From Candidatus Kerfeldbacteria bacterium (GTDB lineage: Bacteria; Patescibacteriota; Patescibacteriia; SBBC01): a DNA stretch of 64,000 nucleotides. Position 1 is the stretch's first letter. Each line of letters starts with the position of its first letter. The notes under the pieces were generated by a model. The model did no database searches. It worked only from the letters and a program-made list of their open reading frames with translations, and had not been told where the DNA came from. Made by a program: the position numbers and the translations under genes. Location: NCBI GenBank assembly GCA_016207275.1, contig JACQPY010000009.1:27637-91636 (forward strand). Reading direction: 5' to 3'. Of this stretch, positions 112 to 47,445 are shown piece by piece.

Positions 112-1110
112 CTATTGCTGCCAAATCCAATACTCATTCAGCGCGTCTTCTTGTATTTTGTGTGTGTTGCCGTGACTGAGTAAACCGAGGTATGACTGCA
201 ATGTTTCGGCGGTGGAATGTTCTTTGATTCGCCGAATCATCCGATGCTTGGTTGTAGTTCGTAAGGTTCGATGATACGGATAGTGTTGCCAGCCGAGAAA
301 GTCAACGCCGGAAGCTAGTGTTTTGATGTGAATCTTATCCGGATGTAGTAGCAAAGCAAGCTTGTCGTTCAAGAATTGTTCAATCAGGGGGATTTGATCT
401 TTTAGCCATGCGCGGTCGTTAGAAAGGAAAACAAAATCATCAGCGTATCGGATATAGTATTTTGCTTTCAATCGGTGCTTCACAAATTGGTCAAACTCGT
501 TCATATAGATATTTACAAGTAGCTGTGACGTGAGGTTACCAAGTGGCAAGCCTTTCCCTAGCTGAGTATGAAAACTGGCAATGATGTTTTCCAATAACGC
601 TAGAATGTCTTTATCAGGAATGTACTGACGCAGTATCCCATTCAAGATGTTCTGGTCGATGTTAGCAAAAAACTTTCGGATGTCGCATTGCAATACCCAA
701 CATGTACGAGTGTTATTTTTGCCAACGCTTCCTGCCATACTCTTGAAGCGCTGTAGTGCTTTATGTCCTCCTTTGTTTACACGACACGAATAGGAGTCAG
801 CGATAAATGTTCGATCAAAGAATGGGTAAAGTTTCCGGTACACTGCGTGGTGGAGCAATCGGTCTTGAACGCTGGCTTTGTGAATATGCCGTGGCTTGGG
901 ATCGGTTATGTAAAAACTTTCGTATCCACTGTGTCGATAGGTCCGATTGGCAAGATCATCGTGAAGCTGTAAAATACTATCCATCAGATGGAGGCTGAAG
1001 GCTTGGACATCTGTGGCTTGTCGTTTACCTCGAAGAAACTCTTTCCACGCCGTCAGTAGATTCTCAGCCGAGATAATATCGTCGTATTTGAGTGGTAATT
1101 CGGCTTTCAT
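112..1110 (-). CDS. Diversity-generating retroelement (DGR) reverse transcriptase
   Basis: 332-aa ORF with RT motifs: N-terminal LxxAWxxFLRGKR, motif 4 variant LGNLTSQ (DGR-specific I/LGxxxSQ instead of group-II QGxxxSP) and YADDFVF catalytic motif. GC is about 40% against about 60% for the window. Lies next to TR/VR/avd. Confidence 0.9.
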   Translation of the reverse strand: MKAELPLKYDDIISAENLLTAWKEFLRGKRQATDVQAFSLHLMDSILQLHDDLANRTYRHSGYESFYITDPKPRHIHKASVQDRLLHHAVYRKLYPFFDRTFIADSYSCRVNKGGHKALQRFKSMAGSVGKNNTRTCWVLQCDIRKFFANIDQNILNGILRQYIPDKDILALLENIIASFHTQLGKGLPLGNLTSQLLVNIYMNEFDQFVKHRLKAKYYIRYADDFVFLSNDRAWLKDQIPLIEQFLNDKLALLLHPDKIHIKTLASGVDFLGWQHYPYHRTLRTTTKHRMIRRIKEHSTAETLQSYLGLLSHGNTHKIQEDALNEYWIWQQ

Positions 1111-1494
1111 ATGGCTTATAAACCGCCCCCCCAGCTTTGGAGCAACTTACCAATTCTACAGAAAGCATCCGACGCCTACAAAATCTGGCACGGCATGCTC
1201 CAAGAGTTTCCCCGTCTTGATCGGTTTACGGTCGGCGCTAAGGTCGATAGTTTGTTCGGGGAAGTATTAGAGTATATTCTGCTGGCTGGGTATTCGCAGA
1301 AGCCGCATAAATTACCACTCGTACAGCGTGCTACAACCAAACTGGATGCTGTGAAGTTCTTTTTGAATATCGCTTGGGAAATCAAGTCACTTGATAACAA
1401 AAAATATATTCGTTTATCCACGCCTCTGACCGAAATTGGAAAAATGCTGGGTGGCTGGCGCAAACAGCTTCAAAACGAAACTCCCTCGGAATAA
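1111..1494 (+). CDS. avd: Avd (accessory variability determinant), DGR four-helix-bundle accessory protein
   Basis: 127 aa. Segments ILLAGYS, VKFFLNIAWEI and LTEIGKMLGGW parallel Bordetella phage Avd (FIVAGKS, LRFWLRFLAGI, IAEVGRILGSW). Start codon abuts the RT start codon on the opposite strand. Confidence 0.75.
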   Translation: MAYKPPPQLWSNLPILQKASDAYKIWHGMLQEFPRLDRFTVGAKVDSLFGEVLEYILLAGYSQKPHKLPLVQRATTKLDAVKFFLNIAWEIKSLDNKKYIRLSTPLTEIGKMLGGWRKQLQNETPSE

Positions 1495-3595: not shown

Positions 3596-4807
3596 TTAGT
3601 AATCCCGCAGCTTCTTCATGGCCCGGTGGGCCTGGATTTTCTCGAGCGCCTTGGCCTCAATCTGCCTGATCCGCTCCCGTGTGACGCCGAACTCCTGTCC
3701 GACTTCCTCGAGGGTGTGGGCAATACCGTCGTGGAGACCGAAGCGCATTTCCAGAATCTTCTGTTCGCGCGGACTGAGCTCACGAATAATCTCCTGGACC
3801 TGCTCGCGCAGCAGCTGCATGGCCGCCGCCCGATCCGGCGTAGTCGTCTTGACGTCTTCAATAAAGTCGCCCAGAACCGAGTCCTCTTCATCGGAATCGC
3901 CAACGCTGGTTTCCAGCGAGACCGTATCCTGGCTGATCTTGATAATCTGTCGAATCTTCTCCACATCCTCGCCCATTTCCGCGGCGATCTCCTCGGGCAG
4001 CGGTTCGCGGCCGAGGTCCTGGATCAACTGGCGCTCGACCTGCTGAAATTTGTTGATGGTTTCCACCATGTGGACGGGAATGCGGATGGTTCGGCTCTGG
4101 TCAGCGAGGGCGCGCGTAATGGCCTGCCGAATCCACCAGGTGGCGTAGGTCGAAAACTTATAGCCCTTCCGGTAGTCGAACTTCTCGACCGCCCGGAACA
4201 GTCCAATGTTGCCCTCCTGGATCAAATCGAGCAGCGACAGCGATCGGCCGGTAAACTTCTTGGCGATCGAGACGACCAATCGGAGGTTGGCTTCAACCAG
4301 CTTCTTCTGGGCTTCCACCTCGCCCCGGTCCTTGCGCTTGGCCAGCGAGACTTCTTCCTCAGTTTTGAGCAGCGGCACCTTGCCGATCTCCCGCAGGTAC
4401 ATCTGGATCGAATCGTTCGAAATGTCGCCGAGGTCGAAGTGGTGTTCCTCTCGCTTCTTTTTGCCCTTCTCGTCCTTCGGCGCCTCGCTCAATTGCTGCA
4501 GATGGAGATCAAGGACGCTGCCGCCGGTTTCCACAATCTTGACGCCGTCCTGCTCAAACCGATCGAGCAATTGCTCGTAGGTCTCGAGGTACTCCTCGAG
4601 ATCGGGTAGAGCGTAGAGCAGCTCGGTTTCGGTCACGAAACCGCGCGACCGACCCTTACTAATCAGTTCGTTAACCGCTTCTTGCGGCACCGCCGACTTC
4701 GATTTTTGGACGCGCGGCAAATGTGACCGCGCCTTAGCCTTTGACGCGGACTTCGGCTTAGCGGCCGGGACTCTCTTGATCGTCTTTTTGATTGGCTTGC
4801 GAACCAT
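3596..4807 (-). CDS. rpoD: RNA polymerase sigma-70 factor RpoD
   Basis: 403 aa with regions 1.2-4, including [40 protein letters not shown]. Downstream of dnaG as in the macromolecular-synthesis operon. Confidence 0.95.
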
Positions 4808-13458: not shown

Positions 13459-13734
13459 CTAACTTCGCTTCCTTCGAAACACGCCTTCCGCCAAGTACTC
13501 TTTCATCAACGACTGATACGGAATATGCAACTCATTCGCCCGTTCCTTAATCCGAATCAATAGATACGAAGGAACGCGCAGCGAGATAGCGTGCGACGTC
13601 GGTTTGAGATCCGGAAAATGTACTGATTCGGCCTTTGACCAATCAACGTAGCGCGTCGAATCGTGGCGTTGCCAAAATCGCCGTTCGTCTGCTTCGCTCT
13701 TAAACTTAGGCAACTTTTTTAAACTTCTTTTCAT
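13459..13734 (-). CDS. brnA: BrnA-like antitoxin (type II toxin-antitoxin)
   Basis: 91 aa. ERRFWQRHDSTRYVDWSKAESV, then a C-terminal ribbon-helix-helix-like region. Overlaps the toxin gene by 29 nt. Confidence 0.75.
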   Translation of the reverse strand: MKRSLKKLPKFKSEADERRFWQRHDSTRYVDWSKAESVHFPDLKPTSHAISLRVPSYLLIRIKERANELHIPYQSLMKEYLAEGVFRRKRS

Positions 13735-14014
13735 AGATGCCCCTTTCCCGCTTATTCGCTGGTCTTGATGAAATTACTCTGATCATGTTGTTCCTGATAG
13801 TAAATACCGTGAATAATACCTTGCCTCTTTTCGACTGCCCTAACATGCGCCACCGCGACTCACGACGGCTGTGTTTCTTGTCGTAGCTGACAAGATTATC
13901 ATTGAAAAACGCTTCTTCCGTTTCGGCTGGACTGACACCGTGTTTTCGTGCACTTTTTCCCTTATTCCATTCATCCCAGATGAATCCCTTCACACCTTCT
14001 AAAATGGCCGCCAT
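13706..14014 (-). CDS. brnT: BrnT-like toxin (RelE/ParE-fold ribonuclease, DUF497)
   Basis: 102 aa. FIWDEWNKGKSARKHGVSPAETEEAF...VFTIRNNMIRVISSRPANKRERGIY. Toxin gene upstream of antitoxin, as in BrnTA. Local GC is low. Confidence 0.75.
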   Translation of the reverse strand: MAAILEGVKGFIWDEWNKGKSARKHGVSPAETEEAFFNDNLVSYDKKHSRRESRWRMLGQSKRGKVLFTVFTIRNNMIRVISSRPANKRERGIYEKKFKKVA

Positions 14015-14045: not shown

Positions 14046-14070
14046 TCAATAGGCACCGCAGAGAATGCCT

Positions 14071-14101
14071 CTAAAAGCTATAAGCTAACAGCTACAAGCT
14101 A
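14071..14101. repeat. Copy of the AAAAGCTA(T)AAGCTAACAGCTACAAGCT repeat family
   Basis: Same motif as 44836-44861 and 46325-46354. Confidence 0.55.
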
Positions 14102-14139
14102 TTTCTCTTTTTCCGCCTCCAAAATCGCCAGTGTCGTCT

Positions 14140-43209: not shown

Positions 43210-44460
43210 ATGCCAACCCTCAATCAGTCCGATCCCGAACTGGCCGCCGGGCTGCAGCGCGAACTCGAACGGCAGCGGTCCGGCTTGGAAATGATCGCTT
43301 CGGAAAACTTTGTCTCGCCAGCCGTGCTCGCCGCCCTCGGCAGCGTGGCCACCAACAAGTACTCCGAAGGGTACCCCGGCAACCGCTACTACGGCGGCAA
43401 CCAATTTATTGATCAAGTGGAAAGCCTCGCCGTCAGCCGCGCCCAGCAACTATTCGGGGCGGAACACGTCAACGTCCAGCCGCTGTCCGGCGCGCCGGCC
43501 AACATTGCGGTCTACTCGGCCCTGCTGCAACCCGGCGACACGGTTTTAGGCATGGACTTGGGCCACGGCGGGCACTTGACGCACGGTCATCCGGTCACCT
43601 GGATGGCCAAGCTGTTCAACTTCGTCCGCTACAAGACCGATCCGGCCACCGGACTCATTGACTACGATCAGGTTCGAGAACTAGCCAAGGCCCATCAACC
43701 AAAACTGATTCTCGTTGGCTACTCCGCCTACTCTCGCGAGATCGACTACGATAAGTTCAAAACGATTGCCGACGAAGTTGGCGCGCTGACCATGGCTGAT
43801 GTTGCCCATATCGCCGGATTGATTGCCGCCAAATTGATGAACAACCCCGTCCCGCTGTTTGACGTGGTCACGACCACCACCCATAAAACGCTCCGCGGGC
43901 CGCGGGGCGGGATGATTCTCTGCCGCGAGCAGCACGCCAAAGCCATTGACAAGGCCGTCTTCCCGGGATTCCAGGGCGGTCCGCACGAAAACAACATCGC
44001 TGCAAAAGCGGTGGCCTTCAAGGAAGCCTTAGAACCGTCCTTCAAGGAGTACGCCCAGCAAATCATGAAAAACGCCAAAGCGCTCGAACACGCTTTTCGA
44101 GCGGGCGGCCTGACCATCTGCTTCCAGCAAACGGACAACCATCTGCTCCTGCTCGATGTGACCTCAGTTGGCTTGTCCGGCAAACAGGCGCAAGACCTTC
44201 TCGACTCGGTCGGCATCACCGTCAATAAAAACATGATTCCCGACGATCAACGAAAACCAATGGACCCATCGGGTATCCGGATCGGCACGCCCGCACTAAC
44301 CACCAGAGGATTTACCGAAGCTGACATGACCCGGATCGGCGAAATGATTGTCAAGGTGCTGCGCTCGCCGAACGACGAGTCAGTCCAACAGCAAGCCCGC
44401 CAGCTGGTTCGAGAACTGACTGCTGCCCATCCGCTGTATCCAGGCTTAGCTTATCGCTGA
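43210..44460 (+). CDS. glyA: Serine hydroxymethyltransferase
   Basis: 416 aa: [24 protein letters not shown] (PLP lysine region). Confidence 0.95.
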
Positions 44461-44478
44461 TAGCTTGTAGCTTTTAGA
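44455..44478. repeat. Left inverted repeat flanking the four-helix-bundle gene
   Basis: CGCTGATAGCTTGTAGCTTTTAGA is the reverse complement of the right arm at 44836-44861. It starts at the glyA stop codon. Confidence 0.6.
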
Positions 44479-44484
44479 GGAAAG

Positions 44485-44847
44485 ATGTACGTAGAATCGT
44501 TCAAACAGCTCACTGTTTGGCAACGAGCCATTGAGGTTATTAAAGAAATTTATCAAGTCACCGCTCGTCTACCCGTAGCCGAACAATACGGATTGATTGG
44601 ACAGATGCGACGTGCGGCGGTTTCTATTCCAGCCAACATCGCCGAAGGTAAAAAGCGTAAAACCAAACGAGACTTCCGCTCGTTCTTGCGAACGGCTGAT
44701 GGTTCGGCTGCTGAGCTCGAAACGCTGATCATTGTTGCTGGTCAAGTTTACCCGACCATCGACTTTTCTCGATGTTCTTCGCCCCTGACTGAGGTTCAAA
44801 AAATGCTAACAGCTATGATACAAAAACTTGAAGCTTCTAAAAGCTAA
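44485..44847 (+). CDS. Four-helix-bundle protein (23S rRNA intervening-sequence / Avd-like family)
   Basis: 120 aa: LTVWQRAIEV...IPANIAEGKKRKTKRDFRSFLRTADGSAAELETL, hallmark of the PF05635-type family. Confidence 0.8.
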   Translation: MYVESFKQLTVWQRAIEVIKEIYQVTARLPVAEQYGLIGQMRRAAVSIPANIAEGKKRKTKRDFRSFLRTADGSAAELETLIIVAGQVYPTIDFSRCSSPLTEVQKMLTAMIQKLEASKS

Positions 44848-44861
44848 CAGCTACAAGCTAT
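44836..44861. repeat. Right inverted repeat flanking the four-helix-bundle gene (TCTAAAAGCTAACAGCTACAAGCTAT)
   Basis: Inverted copy of 44455-44478 and member of the family also at 14071 and 46325. It ends 8 nt before the folD start. Confidence 0.6.
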
Positions 44862-44869
44862 AAACTCTC

Positions 44870-45709
44870 ATGGCACAGCTTATTGACGGACGCTCACTGG
44901 CCGCCGCTATTCGGCGCGCGTTGCCGCTACGGATTGCCAAGCTCCCCCGCCGACCGGGTCTCAGTGTAATGCTCGTCGGCCACGATCCAGCTTCCGAGCT
45001 GTACGTCAAGCTCAAAGGCAAAGCGGCCCAGACCGCTGGCATTCGCTTTACCCTCGAACGGTTCAGTCAAAGCGTTAACCAACACGAGCTCCTCGGTCGC
45101 CTTCAAGCGTGGAACACAGATCCGGAGGTTGACGCCATGCTGATCCAGCTGCCGCTGCCACGGCACCTACGCGAACAGCCGATCATCGAACAGCTGGTGC
45201 CGGAAAAAGACGTTGACGGCTTTCATCCAATCAACACGGCCCGTTTTCTGTCCGGCCAGCGTAGCGATCCGCCGGGTCTGGTTGAGGGTATTCTGCGACT
45301 GATCGCCGCCACTGGCGTTCCGCTCGGCGCACTGACCGCCACCATTGTCGCCCGCTCCAGTGTCTTTACCGACTGCCTTGAGCACGCTCTCCGATTGCAC
45401 GGCGCTTTTCCCCGAACGGTTCCGCCCAACGACACGCATCGAACAGCGACGCTCGAAGCTGATGTGGTGGTGATTGCGGCCGGTCGGCCAAAGTTACTTG
45501 TTGGCGACGATCTTAAGCCAGGGGCAATCGTCATTGATGTCGGTATCAACGCGTTGCCTGATGGTTCGATTGTTGGCGATGTCGACCGCCAATCAGTCGA
45601 GCGGGTCGCCAGTTGGTTAACGCCGGTCCCGGGTGGCGTTGGGCCGATGACCATTGCCATGCTCTTGGAAAACGTCGTCCGCATTGCCGAACGAAACGAA
45701 GTACTATGA
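44870..45709 (+). CDS. folD: Bifunctional methylenetetrahydrofolate dehydrogenase/cyclohydrolase
   Basis: 279 aa: MAQLIDGRSLAA...VMLVGHDPASELYVKLKGKA... Confidence 0.9.
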   Translation: MAQLIDGRSLAAAIRRALPLRIAKLPRRPGLSVMLVGHDPASELYVKLKGKAAQTAGIRFTLERFSQSVNQHELLGRLQAWNTDPEVDAMLIQLPLPRHLREQPIIEQLVPEKDVDGFHPINTARFLSGQRSDPPGLVEGILRLIAATGVPLGALTATIVARSSVFTDCLEHALRLHGAFPRTVPPNDTHRTATLEADVVVIAAGRPKLLVGDDLKPGAIVIDVGINALPDGSIVGDVDRQSVERVASWLTPVPGGVGPMTIAMLLENVVRIAERNEVL

Positions 45710-46248
45710 GCCGAGTCGAGCGCTCGCCACTTCGTTACTTTAAGTTCTGCCCACGATGCGGCAGACAGCTTCGGATTTCGAAAGTTGACGGACATCCGCA
45801 TTTGAAATGCGATCAAGGAGACTTCGTATTTTTCCAGAACCCCCACAGCGCCGTCAGCGGGCTAATCTTTGATCGTCGCGGTCGTGTCATGCTGGTCAAA
45901 CGTAAATACAATCCCAAAAAAGGATTCTGGGATACCCCGGGCGGCTTTGTGGGATGGGGCGAAAATCCCAAACAAGCCGTTATTCGCGAACTGCGTGAAG
46001 AGTTGAAGGTCCATTTTCAACCGCAGGATTTGTCCGGTATTTTTCACGACTGGTATGACATGTTCAACCTGCGATACTCCGTTTACAACATTTACTACAC
46101 CGGAACGATCAGCGGTCGACCGAGACCGGCCTCTGACGTGGCTGCCATCCGATGGTTCCCCCTCAACCGGCTACCCCAAAAAATTAGCTTCTCACATATA
46201 CGTCGAGCGCTCCGACACTACCGAACTACGCACCAGAAAAAATCATGA
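45706..46248 (+). CDS. NUDIX hydrolase with N-terminal zinc ribbon (NudC-like)
   Basis: CPRCG...KCDQGDF then the Nudix box GGFVGWGENPKQAVIRELREELKV. Start taken at the internal ATG (MSRVERS) overlapping the folD stop (ATGA). The upstream ORF extension overlaps folD. Confidence 0.7.
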   Translation: MSRVERSPLRYFKFCPRCGRQLRISKVDGHPHLKCDQGDFVFFQNPHSAVSGLIFDRRGRVMLVKRKYNPKKGFWDTPGGFVGWGENPKQAVIRELREELKVHFQPQDLSGIFHDWYDMFNLRYSVYNIYYTGTISGRPRPASDVAAIRWFPLNRLPQKISFSHIRRALRHYRTTHQKKS

Positions 46249-46277
46249 GCCTCCACATCGGAATCGTCGGCCTTTAT

Positions 46278-46354
46278 GAGCTTTGAGCTTTTGGCTTATA
46301 GCTGTTAGACGCCTCGTCACGATCCTAAAAGCTAACAGCTATAAGCTACAAGCT
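46278..46354. repeat. Stand-alone hairpin built from two inverted copies of the AAAAGCTAACAGCTATAAGC repeat
   Basis: Perfect 15-bp stem GCTTATAGCTGTTAG / CTAACAGCTATAAGC with a 22-nt loop, intergenic between nudix and ychF. Confidence 0.6.
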
Positions 46355-46362
46355 GAACCTCT

Positions 46363-47445
46363 ATGTCATTACAGATAGGAATTGTCGGTCTTCCCAACGT
46401 CGGCAAGTCAACGCTCTTTCAGGCGCTCACCAAAAAGAAAGTTGACACCTCGAACTATCCCTTCGCGACCATTGACCCCAACGTCGGCGTGGTGGCTGTT
46501 CCTGACGAACGGCTTGCCCAGCTGGCTCGGGTGGCCAAGTCCAAAGAAATTATTCCGACCACCATCGAGTTCGTCGACATTGCCGGATTGGTCAAAAACG
46601 CGCACCAGGGCGAGGGCCTCGGCAACCAGTTTCTTCAAAACATTCGTGAGACCGACGCCATTGTCGAGGTCGTCCGCGCCTTTACCGATCCCAACGTCAT
46701 CCACGTGGCCGGCAAAGTTGAGCCAAAAGAAGACGTTGAAACAATCAACCTCGAACTGATCTTTGCTGACCTGGCAATTGTCAGCAAGCGGCACGAAAAC
46801 GTCTTGCGCCAGCTCAAATCAGGCACCAACCGTCAGGTTGAACAACAGCTCGGCGCGCTGACCAAATTCAAAGAAGCGCTTGAAGCGGGCCGGCCAGCGC
46901 GTTCGGTCGAACTGACCGATGATGAACGCGGGCACATCAAGGATATGAACCTGCTGACCGCCAAGCCGATCCTTTACGTCCTGAACGTCGGAGAAGGCTC
47001 CCCTCCGCCCTTGGGGGGAGGGGTCGGGGGAGGTGGGCTGGACGGCCCCGTCGTTCCCCTCTCAGTCAAAATTGAGTCTGAACTGGCTGAGCTTTCCGCC
47101 GAAGACGCCGCCACGTTCATGCGCGACCTCGGCCTGAGAGAATCGGGGCTGGATCAGTTGATTAAAGCTGCCTACCAAACGCTCAACTTGATCACGTTCT
47201 TTACCGCCGGCCCCAAAGAAACCCGTGCTTGGACGGTCAAGCGCGGCACCAAAGCGCCGCAGGCTGCCGGCGTCATCCACACCGACTTTGAAGAGGGTTT
47301 CATCCGCGCCGAAATTATAAACTGGAAAGAGTTTGTTGATGCTGGCGGCGACGTCAGGGCTAAAGAGCTCGGAAAGGTGAGAATTGAGGGAAAAGAGTAT
47401 ATTATTCAAGACGGAGATGTTGTTCACTTTCACTTCCAAACCTAA
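46363..47445 (+). CDS. ychF: Ribosome-binding ATPase YchF, with an in-frame hairpin insertion
   Basis: 360 aa. [12 protein letters not shown]1 motif and TGS C-terminal domain. Insert [22 protein letters not shown] is encoded around the palindrome CTCCCCTCC-GCCCTTGG-GGGGAGGGG (46998-47025). Confidence 0.9.

Follow-up and report, generated by a model that had tools for sequence, protein, structure and literature searches.

A four-helix-bundle gene between inverted heptamer arrays at the glyA-folD junction of a Kerfeldbacteria genome: a probable intervening-sequence-type cassette in a protein-coding operon

Background

The closest described relatives of the element reported here are the intervening sequences (IVSs) of 23S rRNA genes, the sites of which are helices 9, 25 and 45. 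In Coxiella burnetii the IVS occupies helix 45, is 428 nt long, carries an S23p (PF05635) open reading frame (ORF) and is closed by a 28-bp terminal inverted-repeat stem; three to four tandem copies of GACAGAT immediately precede the ORF, the first of these repeats is where RNase III cleaves, and the IVS was judged to be selfish, its ORF being in decay (Warrier et al. 2016, PMC4990558). We analyzed a 64,000-nt stretch of DNA from a Candidatus Kerfeldbacteria bacterium (assembly GCA_016207275.1, contig JACQPY010000009.1, positions 27,637 to 91,636), hereafter the window, in which a PF05635 gene lies between glyA and folD and is bracketed by inverted arrays of 7-nt units. Our analysis indicated that this unit is probably a selfish gene cassette of the IVS type that resides in an operon of protein-coding genes. 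The finding brings a large protein family of orphan status into relation with rRNA intervening sequences and with the heptamer repeats of bacteria.

Cyanobacterial short tandemly repeated repetitive (STRR) sequences are heptameric tandem-repeat arrays. Heptamer arrays have also been described with the units GGGAATC in Xanthomonas and GGGGAYT in Nostoc (Rehm et al. 2015, PMC4692102), with the unit TAACTGA in Beggiatoaceae and cyanobacteria (MacGregor 2015, PMC4679880), and in Geobacter (PMC2700814). Like the arrays of the window, these consist of three to five tandem units, often form inverted pairs 20-70 nt apart, lie a few nucleotides from the stop or start codons of co-oriented operon genes, and supply stops in three frames. 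The papers treat them as G-quadruplex-forming, regulatory or unexplained repeats and do not mention PF05635. Full-text searching, the coverage of which was incomplete, found no literature linking PF05635/S23p genes outside rRNA to heptamer arrays, and the heptamer-armed architecture is apparently undescribed in the searchable literature.

Results and discussion

A heptamer-armed PF05635 gene at the glyA-folD junction

The unit of about 410 nt (44461-44869) consists of a 5' array, a Shine-Dalgarno-like spacer, a promoterless ORF and a 3' array complementary to the 5' one in inverted orientation (Table 1). The arms are tandem arrays of 7-nt units, nnAGCTA, and not copies of one unique 19-mer. 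Positions 44460-44478 are the exact reverse complement of TCTAAAAGCTACAAGCTAT and abut the glyA TGA. At the other end, the right arm reads TCTAAAAGCTA(ACAGCTA)CAAGCTAT at 44836-44861, has one 7-nt unit more than the left arm, of which it is otherwise the inverted complement, and finishes 8 nt short of the folD ATG. This is the extent that the original prediction had given to the arms, from the glyA stop to 8 nt before folD. The 19-mer with up to three mismatches had six matches in the window and none in 100 shuffles. When the 451-nt cassette RNA was folded, the arms paired as a terminal stem in both the minimum free energy (MFE) and the centroid structure, and only this terminal stem was notable. 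The spacer, read together with the end of the left arm as AGAGGAAAG, is a putative ribosome-binding site. A promoter or terminator of the cassette's own did not rise above chance in the window, and an Rfam scan of the window returned only tRNAs; rRNA was absent, and the arms matched none of the known RNA families. The GC content of the cassette ORF was 46%, compared to 57-60% around it.

The 120-aa product belongs to the four-helix-bundle family of 23S rRNA IVS proteins. It matched PF05635 over profile positions 1-105 of 106 (3.1e-31, 108.2 bits, cut-off 33.8) and TIGR02436 at 7e-32 (109.8 bits, cut-off 24). An NCBI 'four helix bundle protein' of Candidatus Kerfeldbacteria had the identical sequence (100%), while an exact search for the protein in the contig index gave no record. 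An AlphaFold2 monomer had four helices with a predicted local distance difference test (pLDDT) score of 93. Using Foldseek, the model aligned to XCC0516 of Xanthomonas campestris (2GSC) with a template modelling (TM) score of 0.85, a root-mean-square deviation of 1.5 A and 38% identity, to BT_0352 (2RLD) with a TM score of 0.75, and to Avd (4DWL, again 0.75, with 8UB7 also matched); phmmer matched the protein to 2GSC at 1.7e-18. For 2GSC a homopentameric toroid of five chains has been reported (Lin 2006, in the form cited in PMC4990558).

At E <= 0.001 the PF05635 family has at least 7,945 relatives. To our knowledge the function of the family is not known, and its only characterised relative is Avd, a reverse transcriptase cofactor. 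Avd shares the superfamily and the fold and is a basic pentameric barrel that binds nucleic acid and reverse transcriptase. Unlike Avd, the cassette protein fell below the cut-offs of the Avd models (NF033474, 22.8 bits against 80; PF22296, 22.4 bits against 40, 1.9e-4), and no reverse transcriptase and no template or variable repeat stood beside its ORF, the neighbours of which are glyA and folD; the diversity-generating retroelement (DGR) of the window is 43 kb away. A search of the window with the hidden Markov model (HMM) of the family, for which the DGR Avd is too distant, found no second paralogue. Our guess is that the cassette protein may bind its own heptamer arms.

Empty and decayed junctions in related genomes

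Homologues of ychF and folD led to syntenic Kerfeldbacteria loci (lgt-x-glyA-folD...NUDIX-ychF-rpsF-ssb-rpsR-efp), in which the glyA-folD spacing was compared, a check that the original prediction had proposed. The junction was empty in L138 (overlap TAATG), L054 (overlap GTGA), L140 and L141, where the two genes overlap, and in L136, where a 9-nt spacer separates them. Since the junctions of these relatives are empty and the genes overlap, the ancestral state was one of two translationally coupled overlapping genes. Decayed forms were found in L135, an internal deletion that has spared the left arm, the ATG with about 30 nt after it, some 25 nt at the end of the ORF, and the right arm, and in L134, where the left arm alone is followed straight by the folD ATG. 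The comparison showed an insertion, placed exactly at the stop/start overlap of glyA and folD in an ancestral Kerfeldbacteria genome. It also showed an order of decay, in which the ORF is lost first, leaving a hairpin, and then one arm, leaving a solo array. The original prediction of a discrete cassette bracketed by inverted repeats was borne out by the HMM matches, the arms and these empty junctions. Neither of the two conditions that it had named as refuting held: the repeat family occurred elsewhere, and no relative carried the gene at the glyA-folD junction without repeats.

The arms have changed far less than the DNA around them. The left arm was 92-94% identical in L134 and L135, while flanking coding DNA was only 64-87% identical. 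Between the window and L135, flanking glyA and folD were 64-69% identical (third positions ~40%), compared to 94% for the left arm and 41 of 42 positions for the right end, despite the loss of the ORF in L135. Arms so much more conserved than their flanks indicate either that the cassettes are younger than the divergence of their hosts or that their ends are strongly constrained.

The sequences GGCTTAGCTTAT and GGCACAGCTTAT were considered as a target-site duplication at the glyA-folD junction and rejected. Their similarity was within the range of shuffles, and its left part belongs to the coding region of native glyA, where relatives encode GL[TRS]Y.

A gene-less hairpin and a solo array

Two further objects announced by the original prediction were found in the window, a gene-less hairpin with a perfect 15-bp stem, which spans 46283-46357, and a solo copy of the repeat beside the BrnT/BrnA genes. 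The hairpin lies between the NUDIX gene and ychF. It is an inverted pair of at least three tandem 7-nt units each, between co-oriented genes, and is thus an object of the published heptamer-pair kind; its 15-bp perfect core extended to 17 consecutive pairs in the MFE structure (z = -2.5). Unlike the published arrays, it is traceable to cassettes that carry an ORF at this very site (L003 and L142, see below). The solo left arm of L134, directly after glyA, has a layout like that of the solo array at 14070-14102. Because L135 is internally deleted and L134 keeps the left arm only, the hairpin and the solo array of the window are most likely decay products of cassettes, as judged from these sequence comparisons.

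On the minus strand, the solo array is now followed by a brnT/brnA pair (BrnT toxin, 13706-14014; CopG/BrnA antitoxin, 13459-13734, both on the minus strand), which may have taken the place of a former cassette's ORF and right arm.

The same architecture across the gene family

Among homologue loci of species-representative genomes, we examined the 47 closest. Inverted heptamer arrays bracketed nearly all of the intact homologues. Arm complementarity exceeded all 30 shuffles in ~33 of 45 loci, the failures being broken or fused ORFs, and the duplex energy of the arms was below that of all shuffles in 36 of 43. The spacing was specific to seven: the 3.3% of sequence next to the ORF ends held 55 of 138 period-7 arrays, while periods of 5, 6, 8, 9 and 10 gave 0-6. 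The units differed between lineages, the two arms of a cassette remaining complementary to each other, with nnAGCTA or nnAGCGn in the candidate phyla radiation (CPR), GTTTGAA in Verrucomicrobiota and Kiritimatiellales (PVC group), GGTGATG in Omnitrophota, GGACCAG in Myxococcota and GGGAGTA in Nostoc, and the two cassettes of one genome can differ in unit. When protein clade was compared with heptamer unit, cassettes of the AGCT type clustered and AGCG-type units were found in three separate clades.

These numbers bear on whether the heptamer runs are ordinary simple sequence repeats (SSRs) produced by independent replication slippage and unrelated to the gene. In many bacteria, heptamers make up the most frequent class of long SSRs (Mrazek 2007, in the form cited in PMC4679880). 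Against this stand the absence of matches in 100 shuffles, the period-specific concentration at ORF ends, the complementarity of the arrays, which goes beyond repetition, and the fact that relatives have or lack the unit as a whole. We regard an origin by chance or slippage as having a negligible probability.

At one orthologous site, between an ATP-binding cassette (ABC) transporter ATPase gene and its permease gene, the arms were of the AGCG type in L015, L017, L019 and L020 and of the CTCTCTA type in L021, and were complementary in each. Arms that differ and yet stay complementary indicate compensatory change, that is, conservation of the pairing itself. The cassette ORF shared the orientation of the upstream gene in 37 of 39 loci and that of the downstream gene in 32 of 38, and the gaps measured a few tens of nucleotides. 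In all 37 of 37 loci its GC content was below that of the flanks of 3 kb, on average by 9 points.

According to the original prediction, such proteins normally reside inside rRNA IVSs. This was contradicted by the homologue loci, none of which (0 of 47) was located in rRNA (Rfam scans detected tRNAs only); a position inside an operon with heptamer arms was the norm. The suggestion that the unit had been mobilised into a protein-coding operon held in so far as it is an insertion with the build of an IVS, but it is a typical family member and not an unusual escape.

A matching build was found on cyanobacterial plasmids inside cas10-cmr3, cas6-cas4 and ribonucleotide reductase operons (L049, L051 and L052), in the last case on the opposite strand between two reductase subunit genes. 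A figure legend of PMC10910872 reports this Pfam family as statistically associated with CRISPR loci; this association may reflect cassette insertions into cas operons. In L002 (4920-5000) and L006 (4935-5000) the order was left arm, right arm, ORF, right arm, with an empty hairpin upstream, which suggests tandem or nested insertions or duplication of an arm. Patescibacteria-like cassettes were present in contigs labelled 'uncultured Gammaproteobacteria bacterium' (L003, L004, L005, L009, L010, L026, L028 and L033), and the ychF of L003 was ~75% identical to that of the window; the taxonomic labels of these metagenome-assembled genomes look unreliable.

Comparison with rRNA intervening sequences and a possible mechanism

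The window cassette has the features of the Coxiella and Leptospira 23S IVSs: a PF05635 ORF of ~120 aa in a loop of ~400 nt, a terminal inverted-repeat stem, heptamers upstream of the ORF, sense orientation within the host transcript, and an ORF prone to decay. Unlike them, it is not part of an rRNA helix but lies between glyA and folD or, at a second site, inside ychF at its 5' end; the unit is nnAGCTA instead of GACAGAT, excision by RNase III is proposed by analogy, and derivatives in the form of ORF-less hairpins and solo arms are documented here. On these likenesses we consider the window cassette to be the same kind of object as the Coxiella IVS in a different host transcript.

In the mechanism that we propose, the cassette would be transcribed by read-through from glyA, and the two arrays would form a stem of ~30 bp closing off the ORF. 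By analogy with the 23S IVSs of Coxiella and Leptospira, this stem would be a substrate of RNase III, cleavage of which would release the ORF-bearing loop and leave both host cistrons intact. Since the cistrons would be left intact after cleavage, insertions at cistron junctions and in rRNA helices would both be tolerated. Stops in all three frames of the 5' arm would terminate any gene reading in, and with the ORF and the downstream gene starting within a few nucleotides of the arms, translation would be passed along.

Several results weigh against a selfish cassette that is processed from RNA. The study of the Coxiella IVS concluded that its protein is probably not made (PMC4990558). The whole 451-nt fold was not significantly more stable than shuffles (z = -1.4), and a motif scan of window ORFs of at least 70 aa found no RNase III signature motif. 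Mismatches in the arms showed no excess of G.U over A.C (37 vs 48, p = 0.28), and sense and antisense duplex energies did not differ significantly (p = 0.17, antisense slightly stronger). A minority of loci (L048, L050 and L051) had arrays that were direct or of non-matching units. In addition, cassette GC tracked host GC (r = 0.91, 37 loci), as expected of long-resident accessory DNA, which together with the ABC transporter site shows that many copies are old, vertically inherited and not actively mobile.

Mobility and a role of the arms in DNA

Because the strand-asymmetry tests were neutral, the pairing of the arms could be selected in DNA as well as in RNA, and a DNA-level role of the hairpins is a serious rival. 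In such an element the arrays would be terminal inverted repeats or single-stranded DNA hairpins used by a recombinase or transposase acting in trans, the ORF-less hairpins would resemble MITEs (miniature inverted-repeat transposable elements), the PF05635 protein might be a DNA-binding cofactor, and RNA processing would be irrelevant. Presence/absence polymorphism and the MITE-like derivatives are in line with it, as are the many ORF-less inverted pairs and few ORFs of Xanthomonas (see below), the lack of strand asymmetry in arm pairing, the conservation of the arms far above the neutral level even after ORF loss, and the fact that Avd-family proteins, to which Foldseek related the cassette protein (4DWL and 8UB7), are nucleic-acid-binding pentamers.

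However, no direct repeat above shuffles was found as a target-site duplication at 33 of 35 element ends, the exception being ychF (window and L003). No transposase or integrase stood beside the cassettes, the only ORF being the 120-aa helical bundle, which has no known catalytic motif. The arms differ within one genome, which means that no single enzyme acting in trans would recognise all of them, and the co-orientation with the upstream gene (37 of 39) is unexpected for a DNA transposon. Short ORF-less inverted repeats at gene junctions are also known as MITEs, repetitive extragenic palindromic (REP) sequences and bacterial interspersed mosaic elements (BIMEs), Correia elements and RUP elements. 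The window hairpin is like these in being a probable internal-deletion derivative of a longer ORF-bearing element and in its putative co-transcription with the flanking genes. It is unlike them in lacking a target-site duplication and in having cassette-specific tandem heptamers as arms, and unlike MITEs and the REP-associated tyrosine transposase (RAYT) system in that the 'autonomous' partner encodes a four-helix bundle and not a transposase. On balance we hold a DNA-level mobile element to be unlikely as the explanation, and an IVS-type cassette remains our preferred one.

A third insertion site in the clade was found upstream of gdh in L001 (Kerfeldbacteria JAYUIJ010000024, 874-1250), the closest homologue among the species-representative genomes, where a 75%-identical cassette has arms of the same type. 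Its ORF has an in-frame TAG at codon 66 and is either a pseudogene or affected by a sequencing error. Pseudogenised or deleted ORFs were seen in L001, L135, L025, L027, L031, L032 and L041. Spread between related genomes is most simply explained by homologous recombination in the conserved flanking genes, with the entire segment being replaced.

Repeated loss of the ORF also concerns the view that the cassette serves the host, as an operon-internal stem for processing, stabilising or translational coupling in the manner of REP sequences and BIMEs, with PF05635 as an ordinary host gene. The arms are indeed conserved after ORF loss (L134, L135 and three ychF hairpins), the ABC transporter site is occupied across deeply diverged genomes, and stops in the 5' arm together with starts abutting the 3' arm fit translational coupling. 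But close relatives do well with overlapping genes and no element, the ORFs are repeatedly pseudogenised or deleted, the contexts are unrelated (folate, GTPase, ABC transport, CRISPR, ribonucleotide reductase, rRNA), and the GC content is consistently below that of the host. A host-beneficial module therefore appeared quite improbable to us.

A duplicated 5' end at the ychF site

The hairpin of the window sits within a former coding region of ychF, and the first 9-10 codons of ychF are duplicated on both sides of it. The upstream relic gave a similarity score of 26, compared to a shuffle maximum of 19, had a host-like GC content of 57%, and was homologous to the true ychF start in L138, L140 and L141. 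The same succession of native 5' end, hairpin or cassette, and second 5' end was found in the window, L134, L136, L003 and L142. In L134 and L136 the hairpin is homologous to that of the window; L003 and L142 have full ORF-bearing cassettes at the same ychF codon 9-10 in a different upstream context. We interpret the hairpin at 46276-46357, by its homology to these loci, as a probable ORF-deleted cassette.

All five right-hand copies (5 of 5) have ATG-TCN...GGAAT, which was absent from the four empty sites and from the left-hand copies. The empty sites (L135, L138, L140 and L141) have left-type starts, and L139 has a right-type start without a cassette. Because the right-hand copy is AT-rich and shared by all occupied sites while the left copy is host-like, the former looks like an element-borne surrogate 5' end that would keep ychF intact. 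In this way an element could occupy the coding region of a conserved GTPase gene harmlessly. Comparison of L003 with L142 gave a third-position identity of 79% for the cassette ORF, compared to 55% for the ychF next to it, with the upstream non-coding region likewise conserved, and showed a cassette at the ychF site that is younger than the host genes.

In L142 (logan SRR22387846_147441, 3607-3969) the cassette has an intact 120-aa PF05635 ORF that is 88% identical to the copy in L003. It was missed by the source annotation, in which the region is a 690-nt 'intergenic' gap before ychF.

Two scenarios account for the ychF pattern: either cassettes have integrated and excised site-specifically more than once by way of the 27-30-nt repeat, or a single old insertion has spread by recombination. 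Under the first, at least some cassettes would be small site-specific integrating units that carry a surrogate end of their target gene and recombine via copies of ~27-30 bp, much like an integrative element by which the interrupted gene is restored. The doubled 5' ends, the shared AT-rich right-hand copies beside left copies like the empty sites, the breakpoint at codon 9-10 in two upstream contexts and the younger age of the cassette all fit, and the element-type start of L139 is consistent with excision or loss. However, this holds for the ychF site only: the other 33 loci, including glyA-folD, have no flanking direct repeat, no recombinase was identified, and one old insertion with lateral replacement of the promoter-cassette-start segment gives the same pattern. 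We consider such a unit rather unlikely, compared to an IVS-type cassette that is carried in host transcripts.

Relation to the Xanthomonas heptamers and a wider class of cassettes

The structural relative 2GSC links the cassette gene to a published array. In Xanthomonas campestris ATCC 33913, a 4-unit GGGAATC array (622956-622983) lies over the start codon of XCC0516, 6 nt after bccP (XCC0517), and ORF-less inverted pairs of GGGAATC lie at groES-groEL, atpA-atpG, atpD-atpC, gltB-gltD and holC-pepA (PMC4692102 supplement). The paper is silent on XCC0516 being a member of the IVS protein family. A full gene together with empty pairs mirrors the full cassette and empty hairpin of the window.

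A wider proposal can be put forward tentatively, as possible but short of probable. PF05635 genes with inverted heptamer arrays may be an unrecognised and very widespread class of mobile cassettes, of which the ORF-bearing 23S IVSs would be the rRNA-resident minority, and STRR, GGGAATC and CPR nnAGCTA arrays and hairpins the ORF-less, non-autonomous derivatives. An Avd-like pentamer would act in trans on the arms, and some copies, such as that in ychF, would come with a surrogate end for an essential gene, sparing the host. If this is true, the origin of ORF-bearing rRNA IVSs is joined with that of unexplained heptamer arrays and hairpins, and a purpose is given to a common 'hypothetical' gene found between essential, CRISPR-cas and restriction-modification genes. 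It would also give a rule for annotation: where a heptamer hairpin lies between two cistrons, it is probably the relic of a cassette.

Features of the window

The coordinates of the features discussed above and of the DGR are collected in Table 1.

Table 1. Features of the window with their positions and strands
Feature	Position	Strand	Description
glyA, 5' neighbour	43210-44460	+	stop TGA at 44458-44460
Left (5') arm	44446-44478	+	TTAGCTT ATCGCTG ATAGCTT GTAGCTT TTAGA; covers the last glyA codons and supplies the glyA stop
Spacer GGAAAG	44479-44484	+	reads AGAGGAAAG with the AGA closing the arm; Shine-Dalgarno-like, before the ORF start
Cassette ORF	44485-44847	+	120 aa, PF05635/TIGR02436 four-helix bundle (23S rRNA IVS protein / S23p family)
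Right (3') arm	44836-44862	+	TCTAA AAGCTAA CAGCTAC AAGCTAT; covers the last four codons and stop of the ORF
folD, 3' neighbour	44870-45709	+	ATG at 44870; NUDIX gene, then ychF further on
Native ychF 5' relic	46246-46275	+	ATGAGCCTCCACATCGGAATCGTCGGCCTT, MSLHIGIVGL; ATG overlaps the NUDIX stop (ATGA) as in empty sites
Gene-less hairpin, two inverted heptamer arrays	46276-46357	+	left ~46277-46310, loop 46311-46330, right 46331-46357 (fold)
Functional ychF start, element type	46363-46392	+	ATGTCATTACAGATAGGAATTGTCGGTCTT; GC 37%, compared to 57% over the next 300 nt
Solo heptamer array	14070-14102	-	'left arm', 38 nt past the NAPRTase stop (14140)
DGR reverse transcriptase	112-1110	-	RVT_1, 1.3e-20
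DGR bAvd-like ORF	1111-1494	+	Pfam, 1.8e-12

The DGR Avd that had been announced for the window was recovered as the bAvd-like ORF beside the reverse transcriptase gene. The DGR (112-2700) looks complete. An Asn-rich, template-like stretch in 1382-1702 on the minus strand matches the C-terminal end of a 211-aa target ORF at 2031-2666, also on the minus strand (...NGNENGVKLNWNWTDNQWNRNCRFVAVC vs ...FGDEVGVKLYWDWTDFQWGRYCRFVAVC).

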